Origin: a virus
Taxonomy: Duplodnaviria; Heunggongvirae; Uroviricota; Caudoviricetes; Demerecviridae
Virus record (IMG/VR): IMGVR_UViG_2706796127_000001
Location: 64,001 to 111,325 of that record
Length of the DNA stretch: 47,325 nt
Direction: 5' to 3' (one strand)
Below, in pieces: positions 8,945-29,562 of the stretch. Positions within the stretch are counted from its first letter, which is position 1. The number at the start of each line of letters is the position of its first letter. Under the pieces are notes generated by a model. The model did no database searches. It saw only the letters and a program-made list of their open reading frames with translations, and was not told the DNA's origin. The translations under genes were made by a program, and so were the position numbers.

Positions 8945-9577
8945 TTATTCTTTAACGTAGCCTAAAGCTATCGCAAGTTTTTCTATTTCAGAAAGATTAC
9001 GTTCTTGAGCTGGGACAGCTTTAGAACTTATTGCAGTAAAAGATTTACGCCATTCAGTATAATCATGACCATTCATGCTCTTAGCGAGATTGAATGTCGA
9101 GTCCTGATTACAAGGTACAGAAACTACCGAAACTTCGTATAGTTCTAAATCTTTAATAATAAATATATCAGTAGCTTCATCCCATTCTGCGTCTAGGCAG
9201 CGGAATCCGATACTAAAAGTTTTCAGTACACCGTTTTTAATTAGTGAAAAGATAGCCGGATCAGAACTTTCATAGATCTCGCATTCGATTTCGAGACCCA
9301 TTTCAGTAGGGTTAAGATCAATACACTTGCCGATTGGACGACGATGATCGTGTCCGAAAAGAATAATCGGGTTTTTCATATAGTTAGTAAGTGCATTAGA
9401 TGTTTTCCACGCAGAAGCAGGAATTACATCACCAGCGCGATCTTTACTAATTGTATTAGCGAATCCACGGATTTTTACAACGCCCTCTTTGGATTCGCTA
9501 TCAATAGATTTAATATAAGCATCTAAATGAACGGGTGCTGATTTTAACTTGTTATAGTCAATAGCAGCTTGTGTCAT
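8945..9577 (-). CDS. pb11: Prohead maturation protease
   Basis: 210 aa; HK97-type protease motifs ILFGHDH..PIG, FSIGF, LYEVSVVSVPCN. Confidence 0.93.
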   Translation of the reverse strand: MTQAAIDYNKLKSAPVHLDAYIKSIDSESKEGVVKIRGFANTISKDRAGDVIPASAWKTSNALTNYMKNPIILFGHDHRRPIGKCIDLNPTEMGLEIECEIYESSDPAIFSLIKNGVLKTFSIGFRCLDAEWDEATDIFIIKDLELYEVSVVSVPCNQDSTFNLAKSMNGHDYTEWRKSFTAISSKAVPAQERNLSEIEKLAIALGYVKE

Positions 9578-9580
9578 TTA

Positions 9581-10075
9581 TTAGCCTCCAGGAACAGTAG
9601 GATTAACTGTCACAGCACATGCAGTAGAATCCTTACTTACTTGCTTACTATCTGTTACAGTTACTTTATAAGAGCCGGCATCCTCAGCTGCTGCTGTAGG
9701 TTTAGTATAGATAGCTCCTGAAGCATCCGGAATAGGAGAACCATCCTTAGTCCATGCATAAGTATATGGACCAGTACCGCCGGTTGCAGTAACAGAAAGG
9801 GTTAACGCTGCTCCCTCTTCAACGGACATGCTAGCAGTTAAATCTTTAGAAAGAGTTAAGGGCGGAGCAGGCTGAGCAGGAGGAACTGCTTTACCATAAG
9901 CCTCTACAAATTTCTTCCATACTTTACGGTTAGTATGCGCAGATGAAAGTCCTAGTTCTCTACGCAGAAAAGCATAGCTAGGAACATATTTATGCGCAGC
10001 AACCGTAGCAAAGAAGATATGAGATTCTGGCAGTTTTTCACCAAAAATGGTCTTTAGACCATTATAATCAATCAT
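9581..10075 (-). CDS. pb10: Capsid decoration protein with C-terminal Ig-like domain
   Basis: 164 aa; Ig segment LTLSVTATGGTGPYTYAWTKDG...DAGSYKVTVTD. Confidence 0.9.
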   Translation of the reverse strand: MIDYNGLKTIFGEKLPESHIFFATVAAHKYVPSYAFLRRELGLSSAHTNRKVWKKFVEAYGKAVPPAQPAPPLTLSKDLTASMSVEEGAALTLSVTATGGTGPYTYAWTKDGSPIPDASGAIYTKPTAAAEDAGSYKVTVTDSKQVSKDSTACAVTVNPTVPGG

Positions 10076-11289
10076 TCTTTATCTCCCTCGGTGGAACCTT
10101 GAGGTCTACCACCTTCTTGACCCGATACACCTGTTGCAGAACCAGCAACGTTAGCAGGAATACGAATCTTATTCATCTGCTCATCATCTAAAGGTTCAAG
10201 GTTCAGCTCTAAACGAGCTTCGTTACCAGTCATAATACCATTATTAACCAATGAGGTTAAATGTTTAGCCTCAGATTCTTTATCTGGTGTTAATGCAGCT
10301 ACTTCCTTAGTATTAGGAGTAATCTTATAACCAAAAAAGAAAGTAAGAGAACTAGTCAGCTTATTCAGCATAGGGATGATAGTCATGTAATAGAACAGTT
10401 CGATATTTGGTCGAATGTTTGCATTATTACCACCATCAAGTAGCACTTGCGGAACACCAAAGGCTAGACAGATGGACTTATTAAATCCTTCAATGTCTTC
10501 CTTAAAGTCTAGATCTTTAAAAGAGGATATTTGGGAGTACGGTTTAGCTTTCATACCACCATCTAGAATCAGGACAGAGGACTGACCAGTACTAGGATTA
10601 TAATCTAGTTGTAATTCTTCTTGTTTACGCTCACGCAATTTCTTGTTCAGGATTTCATCCGTCTCAAGAATAAGACCAATCACGGTTCCGTTATCGAGGA
10701 ACTTCTCTTTAAAGTTAAGCATCTTAGAACGCTTCTCAAGAGAATCAATAACAGTAGCAACACGAGATTGTCCAGAAATTTGAGAATTTGTGCCACACAC
10801 GTAACTGTTATCCTTTATAAAGATAATCTCATCTACGCGATAGTCTATCTGGTTATTAAATATAAATTTTTTGATAAACTTATTGGCATCTGCCTCTACT
10901 TGCATTAATGCAGCAGGGACATGATAAAGTGCTGTGCCATCCCAATAGATGTATGCACAACCTTCAAAAAGTAGGTCAGTGACTACAAGTCTACGGAATG
11001 TGCTTATATCCATGAATGGATTAGGTCGTACATTTAAGAGAGTGTCTAGAGTCTTTGCCTTGATGCCATTAGCATACGTGACAATATTATATTTATCTCC
11101 GACAGTATAAGAACACTCCGCCGCACTATCTATAACCATATTAGCAGTTCTATTGAGAATCTCAATTTTACTGTAGGCTTGTCCAGTGGTAAAAGGCTTA
11201 CGGTTAGTGCGATGACTAACTGGTTCCATGTCTCTTATAATACGTTGACCCGGATTTAGCTTTTCAGTAATCCAGCTTTTAAAACCCAT
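10072..11289 (-). CDS. pb7: Portal protein
   Basis: 405 aa HK97-family portal (ICLAFGVPQVLL, MTGNEARLELNLEP). Confidence 0.93.
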   Translation of the reverse strand: MGFKSWITEKLNPGQRIIRDMEPVSHRTNRKPFTTGQAYSKIEILNRTANMVIDSAAECSYTVGDKYNIVTYANGIKAKTLDTLLNVRPNPFMDISTFRRLVVTDLLFEGCAYIYWDGTALYHVPAALMQVEADANKFIKKFIFNNQIDYRVDEIIFIKDNSYVCGTNSQISGQSRVATVIDSLEKRSKMLNFKEKFLDNGTVIGLILETDEILNKKLRERKQEELQLDYNPSTGQSSVLILDGGMKAKPYSQISSFKDLDFKEDIEGFNKSICLAFGVPQVLLDGGNNANIRPNIELFYYMTIIPMLNKLTSSLTFFFGYKITPNTKEVAALTPDKESEAKHLTSLVNNGIMTGNEARLELNLEPLDDEQMNKIRIPANVAGSATGVSGQEGGRPQGSTEGDKE

Positions 11290-17844: not shown

Positions 17845-18579
17845 TTACGCAACTTTTAATTTCTCAATATATTGTTGCGGGCTGCAACTATATTCTGCGC
17901 GTTCTTCTTCTGTCATACTCTCCCAACATAATTGCAAGCGATCGGCCAGGAACTGATAATCATTATCATCGTCGAGCGATTCATCAATAAAGGTTTCACC
18001 TATCAATGTGACGCCGATTGATAGAATATCATTAATAGCTTGCGCGTCCAACGTTTTAAATCCGTATGACGCTGCCGCTGCTAGCACGCCTTTGTGATCG
18101 TCAATCATCGTAAAATCAGCGTTCGGATATAATTGCTTGAATAATTCAAAGTAATAGCTTTTATAAACTGCGTCTTTGCTGTGGTATATTTCGCTAACCT
18201 TATCAGCCTCAAAATATTTATGCAGTGTATCACGGGAAAACACGCGGATATTACTATCCCCACGCCCTCGCAGTCCTTGTTTGCGTAGGTAATAATAATC
18301 TGATTTGCTCATTAGTCGAGCGGTGCAAATAATGTTTAAAGTATTTGCGTCATTCATGCACTGGCGCATATATTCCACCAAAGGCAATAAGGTATCTTGC
18401 ATTATTAAATGATGTTTGCAAGCCTCATTTTTGTACTTATTTAAATCTAAATTCCCGTCGCTATCAAAGCAAGGCGCTACACGATGGAACGAATTAACGA
18501 TAGTGCCATCAAGATCCCAAATCATGACGCGGGAAATATGCGGGAAATTACGGGTAATATTCGTTTTAACTTGATTCAT
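17845..18579 (-). CDS. dmp: 5'-deoxyribonucleotidase (HAD family)
   Basis: HAD motif WDLDGTI and IDD; start moved to MNQVKTN at 18579 (244 aa, GGAG SD). Confidence 0.92.
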   Translation of the reverse strand: MNQVKTNITRNFPHISRVMIWDLDGTIVNSFHRVAPCFDSDGNLDLNKYKNEACKHHLIMQDTLLPLVEYMRQCMNDANTLNIICTARLMSKSDYYYLRKQGLRGRGDSNIRVFSRDTLHKYFEADKVSEIYHSKDAVYKSYYFELFKQLYPNADFTMIDDHKGVLAAAASYGFKTLDAQAINDILSIGVTLIGETFIDESLDDDNDYQFLADRLQLCWESMTEEERAEYSCSPQQYIEKLKVA

Positions 18580-21894: not shown

Positions 21895-22098
21895 GGTATA
21901 AACTCCAAGTTATTTAGGGGATTGTTCCGCATTACCTGCTAGAAAATAACAGGTAATAAGAAAAAATCCGCTCGCCATTATAAAATCAATTTAAGGAACT
22001 CCACAAGGGCCGCTATATCCCGTTAGGGGGCGGGGCACATTCTGGCAAGTACCGGCCGTCAAATTGTATCAAGTTATCGCTCTTATCGAACTGGGTAC

Positions 22099-22127
22099 AT
22101 CTTAAAGCCTATCGGCTAGGTTGTCAA
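22099..22127 (-). promoter_or_regulatory. Strong pre-early promoter for the A2-A1-dmp operon
   Basis: TTGACA-17 bp-TAAGAT. Confidence 0.8.
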
Positions 22128-22327
22128 ACTATTTTTTGCAGTTTTTTATGATTTTCTTTCAGGTCAATCATAATATTTCGCCAGATCATTTCCAGACCTT
22201 GCTGGCGGCCTTTCTTGTACTGCTTAAATCGATATTTTACCGATCTTTGCGCTACTGTCAACAAATTTTTTGTTTTGCTGTCCAGTGCCTTGCTAGGTTT
22301 ACCAGTGATCAATAAAGTTTGTTTCAT
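22124..22327 (-). CDS. Basic pre-early hypothetical protein
   Basis: 67 aa, Lys-rich, AAGGA SD. Confidence 0.7.
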   Translation of the reverse strand: MKQTLLITGKPSKALDSKTKNLLTVAQRSVKYRFKQYKKGRQQGLEMIWRNIMIDLKENHKKLQKIV

Positions 22328-22339
22328 ATCGTCGATTCC

Positions 22340-22432
22340 TTATAATGTAATAAGTTTGTCGCCGATAGGCTTTAAGATATACCCAATTTTTAAAGAGCGC
22401 GGCGGGAAGTTTACCGCCGTGTAGTTCGTCAT
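22340..22432 (-). CDS. Possible 30-aa ORF
   Basis: MTNYTAVNFPPRSLKIGYILKPIGDKLITL; ATGA overlap with the upstream ORF. Confidence 0.35.
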   Translation of the reverse strand: MTNYTAVNFPPRSLKIGYILKPIGDKLITL

Positions 22433-22614
22433 TGCCGCCCTACGAGATAAATAATAACAAACAACGAAAAAGCCGCAACCTTATTTTTGTAAAGAAATGT
22501 AAAGACAAGTGCCACCGGACACCATGCGGCGACCTGGGCGCGGCGCATTAAAGTTAAAAGAAACGGGCGCGCGAATACCACAAAACATAGCAGATAGGCA
22601 AGTAATTTTTTCAT
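22429..22614 (-). CDS. Possible hydrophobic/membrane protein
   Basis: 61 aa with signal-peptide-like start MKKLLAYLLCFVVFA. Confidence 0.4.
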   Translation of the reverse strand: MKKLLAYLLCFVVFARPFLLTLMRRAQVAAWCPVALVFTFLYKNKVAAFSLFVIIYLVGRQ

Positions 22615-22839
22615 TTATATTTGCTTTCCCCTACTTGACAAAATCTAAAAAGCTCGTGGCAGCGATAAACGGCTTATCCCCTTATGATGGGATGGCTAAA
22701 AACTTTATCGCGTTCTAGGGCGTTTTAGGCCGCCTATTTTCGATTTAACAAATCATTAACAAAAGCAAAATTGAAAAATAGTTAGAAAAGGTCTTGACTT
22801 TTAAAAATCAAGATCAAATGACTTATTTTATAAAATAAA

Positions 22840-23358
22840 TTAATTGACAATTCCAAATTCAGCTTTTTTAATTTCAAGCCATAATAATAACTCTTGTAAA
22901 TCATAACCTGACTTACTAACACGTTTGTTAGTAATAGGATTCTTAATCTGAGCAGTCAAATAGTCACGCCCGTAAGTATCACGGGGGCGAATTTTATTAA
23001 CGTAAATGTTTCTAGGGATACCATTAGCACGCTTACAGTTTTCATACTCACTAGGAGTACGATTATAGTTATTCTGGGAACTATCAACCGCGCGAAGATT
23101 CCAAATGTTATTATTACGGGGGTTACGATCAATATGATCAATCATTAGCTCGCTATCTATACCGCCATTCATTATACAAAAAATAATTCTATGTACTTTG
23201 AATTGTCCTTTATCTAATAATTCAACTTGCCAATAATTACCATTTAAACCACCTGCGATGGCGTGATCTTCTCGCCACCGTAAAAACGATAACGATGTTT
23301 CATCATAATAAAAGTAACTATTAAAAAGGTCATAATCTATATCTTTATATTTAGGCAT
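22840..23358 (-). CDS. HNH homing endonuclease in the pre-early region
   Basis: KVHRIIF...IDHIDRNPRNNNIWNLR; preceded by an extended -10 (TGATATAAT, 23398-23406). Confidence 0.88.
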   Translation of the reverse strand: MPKYKDIDYDLFNSYFYYDETSLSFLRWREDHAIAGGLNGNYWQVELLDKGQFKVHRIIFCIMNGGIDSELMIDHIDRNPRNNNIWNLRAVDSSQNNYNRTPSEYENCKRANGIPRNIYVNKIRPRDTYGRDYLTAQIKNPITNKRVSKSGYDLQELLLWLEIKKAEFGIVN

Positions 23359-23541
23359 CTAATTGTTTCCTTATGTTATTAATTTAATCTCTATTATATT
23401 ATATCAAAATGATTAGCAGACTAGCTAATGAGTTTTTCAGGTTTAATTAGCCGACTCATAATCACTCTAAAAACCTATTAGCCAACTAACTATATTTTAC
23501 GATATAATAACTACATAAATTAGTTAGTGAGAACTACTATC

Positions 23542-23656
23542 ATTTAAGTTATCCACAAAGTTATCCCCAGCACTTTTTGACTTGACACAATAGGCGGCGA
23601 TATGAGGGCTTTTACACAGACTTATCCACAGGTTATCCTACTGTATAAATATACAG
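23542..23656 (+). promoter_or_regulatory. Module of 4 DnaA-box-like sites plus a LexA (SOS) box, left copy
   Basis: TTATCCACA at 23549 and 23622, variants at 23561 and 23633; CTGTATAAATATACAG at 23641-23656. Confidence 0.8.
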
Positions 23657-23931
23657 GGTAAAAAGGCAGTGTTAACAACTGCAATCAATTTTAGGCCGCC
23701 TAAAACGCTTTCTAACGAGCTAAACGCTGCGGGGCAATATTAAAGTAAAGACCCAACACGGCGGCCAGGTGGATTCAGTGCGGCGGCCTGGTGGCTTCGC
23801 CGTGTTTTGTCCCGCAGCGGTTATCATAAAAATAGGCGTTAGGCAAGGAAAATAAAAAAGTAAAATAATCTTTGCCTATGCTAGAAAATTACCCTTATCA
23901 TTCACTCACCGATTAACGAGGGGGCCAACAA

Positions 23932-24918
23932 ATGCGGCTATATAAACCAGATAACGCAACCGTCTTAAAAGGTGCGCTGCGTAACCTGCTGGATGGTAGC
24001 AGAACAACCAGCATTAAGCATTTTGTTTTCAATATTGAAACTATTCATCAAAACTTTTTTGATGATTATGATGCTTATAATATGAATAGTTTTCTACCGT
24101 TATATAAGCAAGGGGCAACGCTTGTTTTGTATAATCAGGATTATCAATTGCTCACTAGTCGGGGGCCGGATACTGATTTCATAATCGTAAAAGGCAACAC
24201 AGTAAAAGCCTATGATACTGGGGCGGGCTTAGAAGTTTTTTCAATAGAAAACTATGAGGCCAATGATAATGATCTTTATGACGTAGAAAATTTTCTCGAT
24301 TCATTTTGGCGTTATTTATCAGTTGGCTGGAATCGGTCGGATTCTGATGGGTATCGTTTTGCGGCTATAATGGCCTTTGATGATAACGGTAATTTTTTGC
24401 TACCGTCGGAGTTATATAATCGGGTATATGAAGGCGATATTGTTGACGCCGGATTTTCTTTCGAAAGGGAAGAAAGTATTGGCAATATAGAAAAACATGC
24501 TGTAAATTCTAACACTAAAAACGTTCACGCTCAAACTACTGAAAACAAAGGAAAAAACACCATGACCAAGATCGCCAATATCGTTGCCGCCAATAAATCC
24601 GCTGCTGTAAATGCTGCAAAACTGGAAGCGGGTAAAATTGCACTGACTCAAATTACGAAAGTAGCGGCTAAAAAAGCGCCCTTCATGATTAAAGGCTATA
24701 TTGATACGCCGATTGGTCGCGTAGTGATCGCTAACCTGCTGAGTGTAGCGGTTGACCAGTACGCCCCAAGTAACCAGAAAGCGAAAGCGGTAGCAAGCGC
24801 GGCTATGGAAGCGGCAATGTTAGAAATGGTGCAAAGTTTTAACATCGCTGAGATGATCGATGAAATGGTAAAAGGTATCGATATTTCTACTTTTACCGTT
24901 AACAACGAAAGCGAGTAA
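23932..24918 (+). CDS. Pre-early hypothetical protein with possible internal start
   Basis: 328 aa; Ala-rich C-terminal third starts at in-frame ATG 24562. Confidence 0.8.
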   Translation: MRLYKPDNATVLKGALRNLLDGSRTTSIKHFVFNIETIHQNFFDDYDAYNMNSFLPLYKQGATLVLYNQDYQLLTSRGPDTDFIIVKGNTVKAYDTGAGLEVFSIENYEANDNDLYDVENFLDSFWRYLSVGWNRSDSDGYRFAAIMAFDDNGNFLLPSELYNRVYEGDIVDAGFSFEREESIGNIEKHAVNSNTKNVHAQTTENKGKNTMTKIANIVAANKSAAVNAAKLEAGKIALTQITKVAAKKAPFMIKGYIDTPIGRVVIANLLSVAVDQYAPSNQKAKAVASAAMEAAMLEMVQSFNIAEMIDEMVKGIDISTFTVNNESE

Positions 24919-24944
24919 TAGCTAACCTAATGTAAAGTTTTGTA

Positions 24945-24972
24945 AAGGTCGCCTTTTATGGCGGCCTTTTTT
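24945..24972 (+). terminator. Intrinsic terminator overlapping an extended -10 promoter
   Basis: AAGGTCGCC/GGCGGCCTT stem plus T run, then TGTTATAAT. Confidence 0.7.
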
Positions 24973-25036
24973 GTTATAATGCCTTTACACCGTTTGAGGA
25001 CGGTTGAAAATTTTCCCAAAAATTTGGAGGCTTAAA

Positions 25037-25267
25037 ATGGTTGCTTTTTCTTCTTCTGACGCTCTTTTCACTGGTAAAGGCTGGGTATCAAATCGCTGGA
25101 TTATTCAAGAAATGGTGCAAGAATACGGCATTGCTAAAACTTATAACACCATACAGGCGCTTTATGATAATGATCAAATCGATCAGCAAACGGCGGGCTT
25201 TTTATTGGATACCCTGAAGGCGGAACACTGTACCAAAAAACAAGCGGCAAAAATTATTTTAATGTAA
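25037..25267 (+). CDS. Pre-early hypothetical protein
   Basis: Start moved to MVAFSS behind GGAGG (76 aa). Confidence 0.75.
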   Translation: MVAFSSSDALFTGKGWVSNRWIIQEMVQEYGIAKTYNTIQALYDNDQIDQQTAGFLLDTLKAEHCTKKQAAKIILM

Positions 25268-25316
25268 TTAATAACGGGGCGTTAGTTTCGCCCCACTAAC
25301 TAGGGGAGTATTACAA

Positions 25317-25466
25317 ATGATTATTTTTCGAGCTATTCTGGCGGGTATCTTGGGCGCTATTTTATCTTTGTTTGCAATAGCTTTCGACGTTCACGCGGTT
25401 ATTATTGGCGCGGGTATCGCTGTATTTTCTTATCTGCTGGGCTGCATGACTAGTAAAGGAGAATAA
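25317..25466 (+). CDS. Small two-helix membrane protein, 49 aa
   Basis: MIIFRAILAGILGAILSLFAIAFDVHAVIIGAGIAVFSYLLGCMTSKGE; GGGGAG SD; below the ORF-track cutoff. Confidence 0.75.
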   Translation: MIIFRAILAGILGAILSLFAIAFDVHAVIIGAGIAVFSYLLGCMTSKGE

Positions 25467-25469
25467 AAA

Positions 25470-25682
25470 ATGATCCGCAACGTTTCTCTTGCACGTTCGA
25501 AAGGCTTTAAGCTGGTGGATGCTAACACGTTCGAGCGTCCAGATTGTAAAATCGAATATGTAGCACGTAATAAAAATGCCTTTCGTGTTACTGAAAAGAA
25601 ATTCGATAAGCGCGGCAACGTGATCACTGAAACGGTTAAATACTTTGCCACCTTTTACGCGGCCTTTCGTGGGGTGTTATAA
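25470..25682 (+). CDS. Pre-early hypothetical protein
   Basis: 70 aa, AAGGAG SD. Confidence 0.8.
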   Translation: MIRNVSLARSKGFKLVDANTFERPDCKIEYVARNKNAFRVTEKKFDKRGNVITETVKYFATFYAAFRGVL

Positions 25683-25683
25683 A

Positions 25684-26028
25684 ATGGTTATTTATGAGGG
25701 CAACCGTTTTGTTGCTAACTGCCTCCCGGCATTATTAGCAAACTATTTAAATCAGCTTTCGCCAACATATAAGGGCGTTATTAATATTTATGAGGGCAAG
25801 GCGCATTATAAAATCAATGCGGTCGTTGCCCGTGAACTAGCGTTTCAATTTTTAACCTTTGCATCTTGCGACGTTCAGGTTATGGGTGAGGCATTAATCG
25901 CAGAAAATGCAGACGATTTTATTAATATTTTCCGCAAGGTGTGCACCGAGCGCCTGATAATGAAAGGCGCATATATTCAATCCACGGCTGATAGTATTGA
26001 AACAGCGTTTCGAAAGGTGGCGCAATGA
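25684..26028 (+). CDS. Pre-early hypothetical protein
   Basis: Start moved to MVIYEGNRF (114 aa). Confidence 0.75.
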   Translation: MVIYEGNRFVANCLPALLANYLNQLSPTYKGVINIYEGKAHYKINAVVARELAFQFLTFASCDVQVMGEALIAENADDFINIFRKVCTERLIMKGAYIQSTADSIETAFRKVAQ

Positions 26029-26288
26029 TTAATCACGGTAATGGTATTTTTACAGTTAGGGGATTGACTGAAGCGCATGATGCAATGTCTGTACGCGCTA
26101 GGGAATTGGGGGCGCAAAACATACCACTAGAAAAGATCCTGGTTGCTATTCGTGGTTGGGCGTATGCTTTGAAAAAATCCCATAAGTCAATTTATATTAA
26201 CAATACTGCGCACATTACATTTTTAGCGGAGGGTGCTGGGCAATTAGAAAACACCGCTATAATTATCACTGATAGCGTGTATGAATAA
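26025..26288 (+). CDS. Hypothetical protein bracketed by 13-bp direct repeats
   Basis: 87 aa; AAGGTGGCGCAAT at 26014-26026 and 26287-26299. Confidence 0.7.
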   Translation: MINHGNGIFTVRGLTEAHDAMSVRARELGAQNIPLEKILVAIRGWAYALKKSHKSIYINNTAHITFLAEGAGQLENTAIIITDSVYE

Positions 26289-26349
26289 GGTGGCGCAATA
26301 AGGTTATATAGTAACGGGGCGCAACTATCCGGAAGTGCCCCCAATTTTC

Positions 26350-26370
26350 AAATGAGAATGATTCTCATTT
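26350..26370. promoter_or_regulatory. Perfect palindromic Fur-box-like site
   Basis: AAATGAGAAT-G-ATTCTCATTT. Confidence 0.7.
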
Positions 26371-26566
26371 GACCGCGCCCGCGATGGTTAGCCCGCTAAT
26401 GGTTAGGGTGTTACGTGTCGCCTTGTGTGATCGTTAGCGGGCTAACTAATTTTCAAGCCTCCTCCAATTTTGCCCTTGTTTTAGTACCCCCAACAAAATT
26501 AAACGCGTTAGAATGCGTTTGAGAGCGTTTTAACGGTATATTAGAATTATTCACTGCGTAGGAATA

Positions 26567-26681
26567 CTGTATATTTATACAGTAGGATAAGCTGTGGATA
26601 AGTCTGTTAATAACGCCTCAAAATGGCTAGAATTTTGTCAAGTCAAATCGTGCTGTTGATAAGTCTGTGGATAACTTAAAT
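26567..26681 (-). promoter_or_regulatory. LexA box plus 4 DnaA-box-like sites, inverted right copy
   Basis: TACTGTATATTTATACAGTA at 26565-26584; TGTGGATAA at 26593 and 26666; TGTTGATAA at 26654. Confidence 0.8.
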
Positions 26682-26699
26682 AACAGTGTTTCTCACTTC

Positions 26700-26985
26700 C
26701 ATTCTTAAATGCGAATCATTATCATTTGCATTCCACTTTCTAAATGAGAATCGTTTCACTTTTTAAATGAGAATCATTCCATTTCCTGAATAATTTTCGT
26801 TTCACTTTCTAAATGATAAGCGTTATCATTTGCATTCCACTTTCTAAATGAGAATCATTCCACTTTCTAAATGAGAAGCATTCCGCTTTTTAAATGAGAG
26901 TGATTCTCATTCCACTTTCTAAATGCGAATTATTATCATTCTCATTCCGCTTTTTGAATGAGAATGATTCTTATTATCATTCGTA
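26700..26985. repeat. Tandem array of ~9 Fur-box-like repeats in the injection-stop region
   Basis: Units AAATG(A/C)GAAT(C/G)ATT(A/C)TCATT joined by TTCCACTTTCT linkers. Confidence 0.85.
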
Positions 26986-26988
26986 TTT

Positions 26989-27012
26989 AGCGCAGGGCAA
27001 TTGCCCTGCGCT
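26989..27012. repeat. Perfect 24-bp palindrome carrying the T5 nick-site motif on both strands
   Basis: AGCGCAGGGCAATTGCCCTGCGCT. Confidence 0.9.
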
Positions 27013-27043
27013 TTTGTGCAAATCCGACATTGCTCCACGGGTG

Positions 27044-27583
27044 TTACGTGCGGGCGTGTATGTGCGAATCCGACCCATTTTTGGTAGTGTGCAAATCCGA
27101 CCCTAAAATTTCATCCCTCCATTTTACTAGGAACTCCAAATCGTAGGAACACTTGGACTTAGTGCCGCTGCTAGTGGGCACATAAGCTCGATAATAGTCC
27201 CCTTTCGATGTAGTACGAGCTACACGGATATATTTTGGTAGATTAATTGTTTTGATATTAGTATCTCTACGATTCCTAGCATTTTTATAATCAGGGATTT
27301 GACGTAAATTTTCTGGACTATTGTTAGTGGGGTCTTGATCTATATGATCTACCTGAAGCTCGGGATCAACACTGCCATTATGCAGGCAGAAAATAATCCG
27401 GGAAACCGCTAGAGTCCCTATCCCATTTACAAAGACCACAAAAGATTTCCTACCTTTCCCGTCGTCCCTTAAAGTGCCTGTATGTTTTCTTTTAGGTAAT
27501 CTACTCAGCCCACTGGGACTTGAGGGGTCAATAAAAAATAAGTCTTTCATTTGTGCGTATTCGATAGGTATATATCTTGACAT
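27044..27583 (-). CDS. HNH homing endonuclease inside the injection-stop repeats
   Basis: AVSRIIF...VDHIDQDPTNNSPENLR; start moved to MSRYIP behind GGAGG (179 aa). Confidence 0.85.
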   Translation of the reverse strand: MSRYIPIEYAQMKDLFFIDPSSPSGLSRLPKRKHTGTLRDDGKGRKSFVVFVNGIGTLAVSRIIFCLHNGSVDPELQVDHIDQDPTNNSPENLRQIPDYKNARNRRDTNIKTINLPKYIRVARTTSKGDYYRAYVPTSSGTKSKCSYDLEFLVKWRDEILGSDLHTTKNGSDSHIHART

Positions 27584-27608
27584 AATAAAATTCCTCCTAT
27601 GAAGTAAT

Positions 27609-27637
27609 ATTATAACAAAATTTTCGAAAGTGTGCAA
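27609..27637 (-). promoter_or_regulatory. Promoter for the HNH gene
   Basis: TTGCAC-17 bp-TATAAT. Confidence 0.7.
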
Positions 27638-28449
27638 GTGAAATTTTTATATTTGAAAATAACCGCCCTCCCCATAACCGCCCTATTCGAATCCTGTGTT
27701 ATTTACTAGAGTATGTGCAAATACGACAGGGGTTTATTAGTGCAAAACCGACAAGATTTTTGTGACTTCGATGAGAGGGTGTGTGATTGTGTGAGTTTGG
27801 AGAGAAGTTGAGAGAGCGAGAGAAAATTAGGGGAACTGCGAGAGGGGCGCATGTTTGGTGCTGGGCACCCGATTTGCGGGGATTTTGGGGAAGAGTTGAG
27901 AAGATTTGGGTTAATTTGAGATTAGAGGAGATAAAGTAAAATTTTATTAGCAAAACGGGGCAAAATAGCTTGACAAGTGAAAATTTCTGTGGCTCTAAAA
28001 ACTCAGGCAATCATGGGCCTTCGGCCCGAAATAATGCTGCTATTTTCAGGAGATTATATGTTCCTAAAAACTTAGGCAATTGTGCAAATCCGACCATAAA
28101 TTTCTAGAAACACAATGTGCAAATCCGACAGTAATTTCTGGAAAAGTGTTTTCAAAAAATGTCTTCTAGAAATAACCGCCCTCCCTATAACCGCCCTGTA
28201 TTAAACCGCCTAGTATATGTTCCTAGAAACTTAGGAGAACCGCCTACTAGAAGTGTGATATCTCGTGAGTATTTCGTGAGAACTCTGGAGTTTCTAGGAA
28301 AGTGTTGTGCCATCCTAGCAGATGAGCGGCAACAGGTGTATCATCTTGAATGTAAATTATATGGTCAAAAGTTTTACTTTTATTTTAAATATAAGATCCC
28401 CCAGGGTTCTCATATAGAGGTTTGCCCCCGCCAGAAGGTCTCGTGATGT

Positions 28450-28586
28450 TTCTAGCAATTTATATTAAATTACTTATTAACTTGTCCTGTCGCTCCGTAT
28501 CCTCCGCTACAAGTTAGTAATTTTAAATTACTGAACCACCACACCTTCTGTGTGGCAACTCTAAATGGTTAATTCTATTAACTCAT
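28450..28586 (-). ncRNA. Candidate structured small RNA with GGA-rich loop
   Basis: No credible ORF; four consecutive hairpins downstream of a consensus promoter. Confidence 0.4.
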
Positions 28587-28592
28587 AGAGTT

Positions 28593-28621
28593 ATGATAAC
28601 ATACATTTAGCTATCTGTCAA
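28593..28621 (-). promoter_or_regulatory. Promoter with no downstream ORF
   Basis: TTGACA-17 bp-TATCAT with extended TG. Confidence 0.7.
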
Positions 28622-28677
28622 CGAGAGTTTGTATTTGAGTCTCGGTACAGGTATTGTGCACCGAGACATGCAGAGTA

Positions 28678-29562
28678 TTATAGTAATTCTTGGTATGCTT
28701 TTTGATACGCCTCAGTGTCAATAGGTGTACCTTTTGCTAACGCAATTAGTTCATCTGTTATCTGAATATCAGTATTATAACGTGTGTGGAACTCATCAGG
28801 AATTTCTAGATACCTATTGATGAATGCTGCAGCAAGCGGTGAAGCTAAACCAATCTCTAGAGATATCTTAACTTGTTTCTCATAAATTAAATACTGAGAA
28901 TCAGATGGGATTGGTGGGGTTACATCAACTTTTTCTGGTTCTTTTTCTGGAAGCAATGGATTGTTATACAATGCTTCATCTGGAAGCACAGATTTACGCT
29001 CTTTAAATATATAAGTTTCTAGATCCGATGCTTTAGATCCTGAGTATACAGCAAAAACGCTAGCTTTACCTTGAGATGCTCTAACGGGTAAATAGTTAGT
29101 TGGGTAGCTCCTTAATGCATCGTGGAATGGACTTCCTGAGTATTTGTACGTATCCCCATAGAGATCATCAATATTCATTCGTTCATCTTCAAAAATGTGG
29201 AAAGAGCTAAATGATGGGATAGTAAAGTATTCCATCTGTAACCCATAAACTAAGAAACGGTGTGCATATGCGCTAATCTTTAAGACTGTGAATGCTTTTT
29301 CACCTTCCTTATAAGAATTGCCCTTTGAAGTAACTTGATAACGCTTACAGAACATCTCTACTAGACGTTTCTCATTAATATTGAGTGAGGAATATAAACG
29401 TCCATTTAGTCCTAGAAGGGCATCGAACATAAATGCTAACTTATCTTTTTCTTCTTGAGACAGTTCTGGAAATGGTAATACTTTGGCGTTAGGAACATTA
29501 TTGTTCTCTTTAGGTTTTGTTTTACCAGCATTTTGTCTTAGTTTATCTTTAAAGTTATACAT
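28678..29562 (-). CDS. Early hypothetical protein
   Basis: 294 aa, GGGGGA SD. Confidence 0.85.
   Translation of the reverse strand: MYNFKDKLRQNAGKTKPKENNNVPNAKVLPFPELSQEEKDKLAFMFDALLGLNGRLYSSLNINEKRLVEMFCKRYQVTSKGNSYKEGEKAFTVLKISAYAHRFLVYGLQMEYFTIPSFSSFHIFEDERMNIDDLYGDTYKYSGSPFHDALRSYPTNYLPVRASQGKASVFAVYSGSKASDLETYIFKERKSVLPDEALYNNPLLPEKEPEKVDVTPPIPSDSQYLIYEKQVKISLEIGLASPLAAAFINRYLEIPDEFHTRYNTDIQITDELIALAKGTPIDTEAYQKAYQELL

Follow-up and report, generated by a model that had tools for sequence, protein, structure and literature searches.

The DNA of phage T5 stops after 8% of the genome on its way into the cell, and the repeats of its injection stop signal (iss) are still called unexplained in papers up to 2026, although they have themselves long been known (Heusterspreute 1987; Wang 2005; Davison 2015/2020). 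What, then, do these repeats represent? The question is raised here by a 47,325-nt window (positions 64001-111325 of the 111,325-bp genome of a Demerecviridae phage, IMG/VR record IMGVR_UViG_2706796127_000001, which holds the terminal repeat in one copy; window coordinates are used below unless stated otherwise). An earlier reading made from the sequence alone took a block of repeats in it for an array of about ten boxes of the host iron regulator Fur, lying on the first-injected DNA. We observe that by statistical measures the units cannot be told apart from strong Fur operators of enterobacteria, and we put the chance at about even that six full and four half Fur operators, with Fur acting in company with LexA and DnaA, serve as a structural landing pad in cis.

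Identity of the repeat block

By homology and synteny, the block is the T5-type iss (Repeat Region 3, the DRC/DRE/palindrome block) at the right edge of the terminal repeat, as the sequence-only reading had supposed from its letters. With 26300-27150 as query, 441 phage records match at up to about 94% identity, the majority of them T5-like phages of Salmonella and Escherichia; identity to T5-like genomes is 86-94%. The T5 record carries its iss feature on the homologous stretch (9140-10149), places the "major DNA single-chain interruption" (9748-9749) in the homologous hairpin, and ends the terminal repeat at 10219. The block is non-coding, lies in the right part of the terminal repeat downstream of the rightward pre-early operon (which ends at 26288), and is followed by the GCGC nick hairpin (26989-27012) and then by GTGCAAATCCGAC repeats (27016-27101). 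It is furthermore accompanied by paired DnaA boxes in the IRD'-spacer-IRC' arrangement, which have an inverted partner at the divergent promoters. The physical left end, aligned to the T5 left terminus, falls at approximately 17722, and therefore the first-injected DNA reads rightward from there with the array at its far end; in first-step transfer the repeat block enters the cell last. No chromosomal or prophage homologue of the array was found by blastn against E. coli genomes (E up to 1).

Likeness of the units to Fur operators

The ten 21-mers that had been picked out earlier are found exactly at 26350, 26707, 26742, 26765, 26811, 26846, 26869, 26892, 26921 and 26956, and a repeat search of the window gathers all ten into one family. 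In order to score them we constructed a palindromised 19-bp position weight matrix, refined on the best site from each of 15 E. coli K-12 Fur-regulon intergenic regions taken from RefSeq (fepA-fes, fepD-entS, fepB-entC, fhuA, cirA, fiu, tonB, fecI, fecA, exbB, feoA, fhuE, fhuF, sufA and ryhB); scored leave-one-out, these 15 host sites gave a median of 15.1 bits, with the lower quartile at 12.3 bits. Region 26340-26990 holds 11 positions at >=12 bits, against a mean of 0.15 (maximum 3) in 2000 dinucleotide-preserving shuffles, and 8 positions at >=14 bits against a mean of 0.045 (maximum 2), so the comparison with shuffled DNA, which the sequence-only reading had named as a check, went in its favor. 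This 650-bp region accounts for 8 of the 11 matches at >=14 bits in the window and 8 of the 12 in the whole genome, or 12.1 per kb against 0.036 per kb elsewhere (an enrichment of approximately 330-fold), and for 4 of the 5 genomic matches at >=16 bits. A matrix built from the ten copies by direct-repeat alignment, and thus not by way of the Fur matrix, correlates with the host matrix at 0.71, a value reached by 0 of 5000 column permutations.

The finer features of the matches also follow the host pattern. They are paired at a 6-bp offset, like host operators, and the main departure from the textbook consensus, the G of TGAGAAT, belongs to a GAGAAT/ATTCTC variant that is also found in host fhuA, ryhB, feoA, exbB and fecI. 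Against the Zur operator (the K-12 znuA/znuC palindrome) the array units show only 9-13 of 23 identities, and judged in this manner they fit Fur better than Zur, the other Fur-family repressor of E. coli. Loci fetched by an 18-mer spanning the DnaA-box pair (97 of the 105 returned contigs being non-T5) served as a negative control, and 91 of these 97 non-T5 viral loci have no match of >=13 bits in 700 nt. The 18-mer itself, GATAAGTCTGTGGATAAC, is seen exactly in more than 100 non-T5-like viral contigs (L144-L263), with neither GTGCAAATCCGAC repeats nor Fur sites.

The ten units fall into two kinds. Six (26350, 26707, 26811, 26892, 26921 and 26956) are two-armed boxes of the 7-1-7 form with 0-2 mismatches per arm, and at 13.0-21.6 bits they score on par with the best E. 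coli Fur sites. The other four (26742, 26765, 26846 and 26869) have a good left arm and 4-5 of 7 mismatches in the right arm, and score 10.1-12.1 bits. The earlier count of about ten Fur boxes thus stands for six of them and, given the degenerate right arms of the remaining four, is better put as six boxes and four half sites. The isolated box at 26350 has the 7-1-7 core TGAGAAT-g-ATTCTCA with one mismatch per arm and a best 19-mer of 16.5 bits; its palindrome, described earlier as a perfect 10-1-10, is indeed perfect and actually extends to 12-1-12.

Tandem Repeats Finder resolves nested periods of 23, 29, 35 and 104 bp, the 23-bp unit sitting within a super-repeat of approximately 104 bp. 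In an RNA-library contig of a relative, 110 nt corresponding to 26816-26927 are absent, equivalent to one super-repeat unit; this one-unit deletion, together with a range of 152-331 nt in the length of the corresponding interval among 22 Fur-type phages (see below), indicates that the array grows and shrinks by whole units. Inspection of the half-site spacer by eye found no IHF or other consensus. A 70-codon open reading frame (ORF; 26894-27106, + strand) runs from inside the array across the hairpin; its T5 counterpart has no annotated gene, some relatives annotate "hypothetical proteins" over the repeats, and it is probably not a gene.

A variable slot within a conserved skeleton

The elements of the region, in their order along the DNA, are as follows.

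17949-17973, no strand: overlapping pair of Fur-like 19-mers (18.7 and 15.6 bits)
23549-23658, no strand: inverted DnaA/LexA partner module at the divergent pre-early promoters
26350-26370, no strand: isolated perfect palindromic Fur-like box, about 60 bp past the last rightward pre-early ORF
26387-26446, no strand: 13-nt inverted repeat with a 34-nt spacer (GTTAGCCCGCTAA ... TTAGCGGGCTAAC), followed by a short T run
26519-26547, + strand: promoter-like site TTGAGA-17-TAGAAT, 10/12 matches
26565-26584, no strand: near-consensus LexA (SOS) box, one mismatch to the 20-bp consensus
26591-26614 and 26652-26675, - strand: two DnaA-box pairs, equal to the T5 IRD'-spacer-IRC' (Davison 10.1101/866236)
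26685-26697, no strand: short conserved element AGTGTTTCTCACT directly past the second DnaA pair, also in T5, Slocum and Proteus phage 1
26707-26976, no strand: main array of nine units (five two-armed boxes and four half sites)
26989-27012, + strand: GC-rich perfect hairpin followed by TTTT, terminator-like
27016-27101, + strand: three copies of GTGC(A/G)AATCCGAC, the T5 "DRD" repeats
27044-27637, - strand: HNH endonuclease gene (HNH_3, E = 2e-12), inserted in the GTGCAAATCCGAC (DRD) repeat field

The DnaA boxes are perfect at 26593 and 26666 and have one mismatch at 26654, and the GCGC within the terminator-like hairpin is the counterpart of the major single-chain interruption annotated in T5. 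The partner module comprises DnaA boxes at 23549, 23561 and 23622, a weaker LexA-like box (23639-23658) and, nearby, a weak Fur-like site at 23523. A mismatch scan finds the LexA box at the same relative position in T5, Pectobacterium phage My1, Klebsiella Sugarlandvirus, Vibrio phage VspSw_1, Serratia phage Slocum and Proteus phage 1; adjoining the DnaA pairs, it is kept in every Demerecviridae lineage examined. The inverted repeat at 26387-26446 holds two copies of the TTAGYNNRCTAA motif (26388 and 26434). The HNH gene has a strong promoter-like site (27636-27609) and is transcribed toward the array, and a second HNH gene lies at 22840-23358.

Host Fur operators overlap the promoter that they repress, and this is not the case here. 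The earlier remark that no gene promoter is evident among the boxes was borne out, as promoter-like matches inside the array reach at most 9/12 and the nearest 10/12 match (26519-26547) lies approximately 150 bp upstream. In a scan of the genome, no strong Fur site outside the array (26340-26990) lies at a phage promoter.

The order LexA box, DnaA pairs, slot, CTGCGC and GTGCGAATCCGAC-type repeat recurs across Demerecviridae, and it is the same in T5, My1, Sugarlandvirus, VspSw_1, Proteus phage 1, Slocum and Vibrio phage Thalassa. Within this conserved skeleton of LexA, DnaA, nick and DRD elements, the content of the slot varies among lineages. In T5, My1, Sugarlandvirus, VspSw_1 and Proteus phage 1 the slot consists of Fur-like boxes, those of Proteus phage 1 being worded differently (TAATGATAATCAC) and repeated with a 46-bp period. 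In Thalassa it holds four tandem MetJ-like 8-mers of the AGACGTCT type (L022:380-420), and such 8-mers are also present in the IMG/VR loci L283, L271 and L303, from 4 to approximately 9 in a row. Next to the MetJ-like boxes stand 2-6 tandem copies of a CACTAATATAGGGA-type repeat. The present window contains no MetJ-like boxes, a single 3-mismatch match at 2814 being unrelated.

A survey of IMG/VR loci fetched by the conserved nick-plus-repeat pattern yielded 25 distinct Demerecviridae slots, this window included. Fur sites of >=13 bits (2-5 of them within 152-331 nt) were found in 22 of the 25, and the other three have MetJ-like boxes, in one case approximately nine tandem 8-mers, and zero Fur sites. 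The present phage leads the sample both in slot length (331 nt) and in the number of sites, with 5 at >=13 bits and 10 at >=10 bits. Conservation of the array in T5-like phages, which the sequence-only reading had proposed as a check, holds for the large majority of slots and fails in the MetJ-like ones, as well as in Slocum and Vibrio phage D13, which have neither kind of array.

A Fur-like feature is also found near the left end. The pair at 17949, approximately 228 bp from the physical left end and inside the 3' part of dmp, is the only site of >=16 bits outside the array in the whole genome. Comparable dmp-proximal sites are seen in T5 (at 228), in My1 (position 20), in Thalassa (just past dmp) and in Proteus phage 1 (the last 70 nt of dmp). 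In My1 and Thalassa it lies outside coding sequence, and its distance to the dmp stop codon differs between T5 and Proteus phage 1. Together these suggest that both ends of the terminal repeat share a Fur-like feature.

Arrays of this kind are not confined to the family. BLAST with the array returns short matches in Cronobacter phage CR8 (Vequintavirinae), in phAPEC8-like phages (Stephanstirmvirinae) and in Klebsiella phage K64-1, all of which have box clusters scoring 15-23 bits in long gene-free stretches. One exact 19-mer is present in more than 120 IMG/VR stretches; of the 80 loci examined that carry it, just 4 are T5-like, and in 31 a span of 500 bp takes in three or more sites. A stretch matching at 29 of 31 nt, flanks included, is common to this array and phAPEC8. 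CR8 (L014:1230-1330) and phAPEC8 (L015:1215-1300) also share a promoter-like site upstream of the boxes and then a conserved GC-rich motif, CGCCACCCCACGGCG-AAAGGCGGGGCTAAC, a region that looks like a small structured RNA. We know of no report of two-step injection in CR8, phAPEC8-like or K64-1 phages.

What the putative operators may do

The reading to which we give an even chance runs as follows. Metal-loaded Fur dimers would occupy the boxes of the array, LexA would sit on the SOS box and DnaA on its two pairs of boxes, and the three together would form a large assembly of host proteins and DNA, situated between the pre-early genes on one side and the conserved GCGC nick hairpin on the other. 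The most likely role of such a complex would be that of a structural landing pad acting in cis: it could anchor or topologically close the first-step DNA, it could insulate the boundary of the terminal repeat from transcription, or it could mark that boundary for nicking or for processing of the terminal repeat. A landing pad for an abundant host repressor is the best fit to the comparative pattern of the slot, and as the identity of the repressor in the slot appears secondary, iron sensing is probably not the point. Going by their sequence, the units are probably real Fur operators and part of such a pad for host repressors; their occupancy by Fur in vivo and the structural role are what we infer from this pattern.

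Several observations weigh against this reading. A match to a matrix is not the same as occupancy, and binding by metal-loaded Fur is a prediction. The second arm is missing in four units, and the inter-unit spacer ATTCCNCTTTYT is approximately as conserved as the boxes in a unit logo of 22 phages, so the unit may encode something in addition to a Fur site, or the repeats may just be of recent origin. The hosts that T5-like phages encounter are often starved of iron, and in such cells the FhuA/FepA receptors are induced and Fur is largely metal-free. The Slocum slot is without any Fur site of >=13 bits and has other palindromes in its place, and in D13 the LexA and DnaA boxes are retained along with an A1-like gene, with no Fur-like or MetJ-like array. 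As the Slocum and D13 slots hold nothing recognisable, the array is either dispensable for the lifestyle of the family or replaceable by other sites. Slocum nevertheless keeps the LexA/DnaA skeleton, the nick site, the GTGCAAATCCGAC repeats and A1/A2. Within its slot (L021:11935-12100) lie a perfect palindrome of 14 nt, GTTAGTTAACTAAC, which conforms to the TTAGYNNRCTAA motif, and two copies of a AATAACGTAAGGTGA-TAATGATT repeat.

Two other accounts of the units are improbable in our estimation, though they retain some weight. According to the first, the units serve a protein of the phage as binding sites or iterons, whether A2 or a different pre-early product, and their likeness to Fur operators is incidental. 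According to notes in the T5 record, transfer cannot resume without A1 and A2, and A2 is a DNA-binding protein; the spacer of the unit is conserved as much as the box, and the 29/31-nt stretch common with phAPEC8 may point to a repeat unit that extends beyond a Fur box. However, A2 and the array dissociate: a search with T5 as positive control detects A2 homologues in Slocum (E = 3e-28) and in Thalassa (E = 7e-19), both without a Fur array, and it found none in CR8 and K64-1, both of which bear arrays. Furthermore, the boxes score on the host matrix at the level of the best host operators, and the corresponding slot of Pectobacterium, Klebsiella, Proteus and Vibrio phages is occupied by differently worded boxes, those of the Proteus and Vibrio phages differing from the present ones and yet converging on the Fur consensus. 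This dissociation, and the convergence of divergent boxes on a host consensus, favor the host protein Fur, and it is the conserved host protein that we would predict as the binder.

The second account, to which we attach a similarly low probability, holds that the palindromes act through DNA structure (hairpins, cruciforms or bends beside the nick) with no sequence-specific protein. A single strand of the array folds at -54.3 kcal/mol against -24.8 for shuffles (z = -9.5), the conserved nick site directly adjoins the array, and the account matches the literature's description of the region. Strong folding is, however, expected automatically from any set of inverted repeats; the result leaves the structural account alive. 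Four units are not palindromic, the Thalassa-type slot uses tandem 8-mers, and it would be unlikely for arbitrary palindromes in several lineages and families to settle on the Fur consensus.

The sequence-only reading had itself proposed that Fe-Fur polymerises on the array as a physical roadblock that pauses transfer and renders commitment iron-dependent. The array does lie at the calculated shear point of the first-step-transfer DNA (approximately 9618 in T5, inside 9549-9712), its boxes are very strong Fur-like sites, and the host factor for the stop is still unknown in the literature. The comparative data nevertheless do not sustain the proposal. Slocum (with skeleton, nick site and A1/A2) and D13 (with LexA, DnaA and A1-like gene) have no Fur-like site, Thalassa-type phages carry MetJ-like boxes instead, A1/A2 being kept in Thalassa, and arrays occur in other phage families for which no two-step transfer is known to us. 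The boxes are discrete and 23-46 bp apart, and there is no contiguous run of hexamers of the kind that would favor polymerisation; a soluble protein on the internalised DNA would moreover have no evident grip on the DNA still in the tail. It is unlikely that Fur is the brake itself, and we consider the roadblock as formulated to be quite improbable.

Of equally slight probability is the notion that the boxes are ordinary operators gating a rightward transcript from 26519-26547 to the hairpin at 26989-27012, be it an iron- and SOS-responsive non-coding RNA or a transcriptional insulator. The 10/12 promoter-like site points into the LexA box, the DnaA boxes and the Fur array, a clean terminator-like hairpin follows on the same strand, and the boxes of CR8 and phAPEC8 are likewise downstream of promoter-like sites. 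Against this, the first hexamer of the site is not conserved in T5, the boxes begin approximately 150 bp past the putative start, which is unusual for repression, and Rfam returns nothing above threshold over the array region. Four RNA-library runs with relatives (22000-29500) gave assembled contigs, from mixed relatives, that cover the array, in a format that cannot show transcription, strand or ends. Two Rfam matches below threshold were dismissed: Listeria rliI over the hairpin, which scored 28.2 bits where 45 are required, and a weak one to idnO.

We likewise regard as quite improbable the proposal that the block is part of an oriC-like origin or iteron field of DnaA boxes and AT-rich repeats. 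Paired DnaA boxes do adjoin AT-rich repeats, and a likeness to oriC was noted by Davison (10.1101/866236); the same source reports that electron microscopy put the T5 origins near the middle of the genome and that replication genes are absent during first-step transfer. Cumulative GC skew shows no extremum at the array, although skew follows gene orientation in this genome, so that its course says nothing about an origin here.

A bolder form of the host-repressor idea would make the global repressors (Fur mostly, MetJ in some phages, always beside LexA and DnaA) cofactors of two-step injection, their joint loading on the part of the first-step DNA that enters last setting or timing the pause. 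We give this little credence. If it were true, the phage would read the iron, methionine/S-adenosylmethionine, DNA-damage and replication status of its host before committing the other 92% of its genome, as Fur, MetJ, LexA and DnaA would all bind DNA only in a replete, undamaged cell.

The weakest of the proposals, likewise from the sequence-only reading, is that Fur is titrated by the phage genomes as they replicate, with derepression of iron uptake in the host as the result; the sites are many and strong with no promoter to regulate, and by simple arithmetic two terminal repeats per genome in hundreds of genomes per cell could in principle match the number of Fur molecules, but the slot holds MetJ-like boxes or nothing in other lineages, and at the first-step stage one array of approximately 10 sites per cell is negligible beside thousands of Fur molecules. 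As host DNA is degraded within minutes, in the pause after first-step transfer and before replication (T5 preprint), no host Fur regulon would persist to respond to titration, and we consider a sponge very improbable indeed.

To return to the landing pad, its interest lies in the host candidates that it names. The host factor that stops T5 DNA has escaped identification for some 50 years, and the Fur-operator reading offers testable ones: the Fur array, the adjoining near-perfect LexA box, the known DnaA boxes and the MetJ-like replacement in some relatives. The presence of the same arrays in unrelated large virulent phages suggests a wider, undescribed use of host repressors outside promoter control. 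Even if Fur does not bind, the resemblance needs explaining, since it recurs across several virus families. The Davison preprint (10.1101/866236) and papers of 2023-2026 describe the repeats, the palindromes and the DnaA boxes and mention neither Fur nor LexA, and full-text literature searches for Fur with T5-like phages or phage genomes found no publication linking the array to Fur. As such, what is new here is not the repeats but the probable use of Fur operators outside promoter control on the DNA of a virulent phage.

With regard to known systems, the nearest is the T5 iss itself (Heusterspreute et al. 1987; Wang et al. 2005; Davison 10.1101/866236), which has the same position after the rightward pre-early operon and the same order of palindrome, LexA-like palindrome, paired DnaA boxes, DRC/DRE repeats, GCGC nick hairpin and GTGCAAATCCGAC repeats; the present locus differs in its slot of 331 nt, the longest of the 25, and in the HNH gene inserted in the DRD field. 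The arrays of CR8, phAPEC8 and K64-1 share the extended box AAATG-GAAT-N-ATT-TCATTT, come in clusters of at least four in long gene-free stretches and are followed by other repeat families, but they belong to other virus families and have neither a DnaA/LexA module nor GTGCAAATCCGAC repeats.

Among host systems, the multi-site Fur operators of E. coli (fepA-fes, fepB-entC, fepD-entS, fhuA, fhuF, ryhB, sufA and others) have the same 19-bp/7-1-7 consensus and the same 6-bp-offset pairs, and the array scores equal to them or higher. They consist, however, of 1-3 overlapping sites atop a promoter, whereas the array is made of six boxes and four half sites spread over 630 bp with no convincing promoter among them. 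The slots of the Thalassa type, with 4 to approximately 9 tandem AGACGTCT-like 8-mers, resemble in turn the tandem 8-bp met boxes of MetJ operators at enterobacterial met genes, which serve a different repressor with a different co-repressor, S-adenosylmethionine as opposed to iron. Last, the model of Davison, in which membrane-bound DnaA holds the T5 iss region (10.1101/866236), likewise invokes a pre-existing host DNA-binding protein in the same non-coding region, and its DnaA pairs are confirmed in all lineages examined. That model ignores the repeat block itself; to it the present data add the Fur-like and LexA-like sites, and a slot that varies in content while the DnaA and LexA sites around it stay constant.

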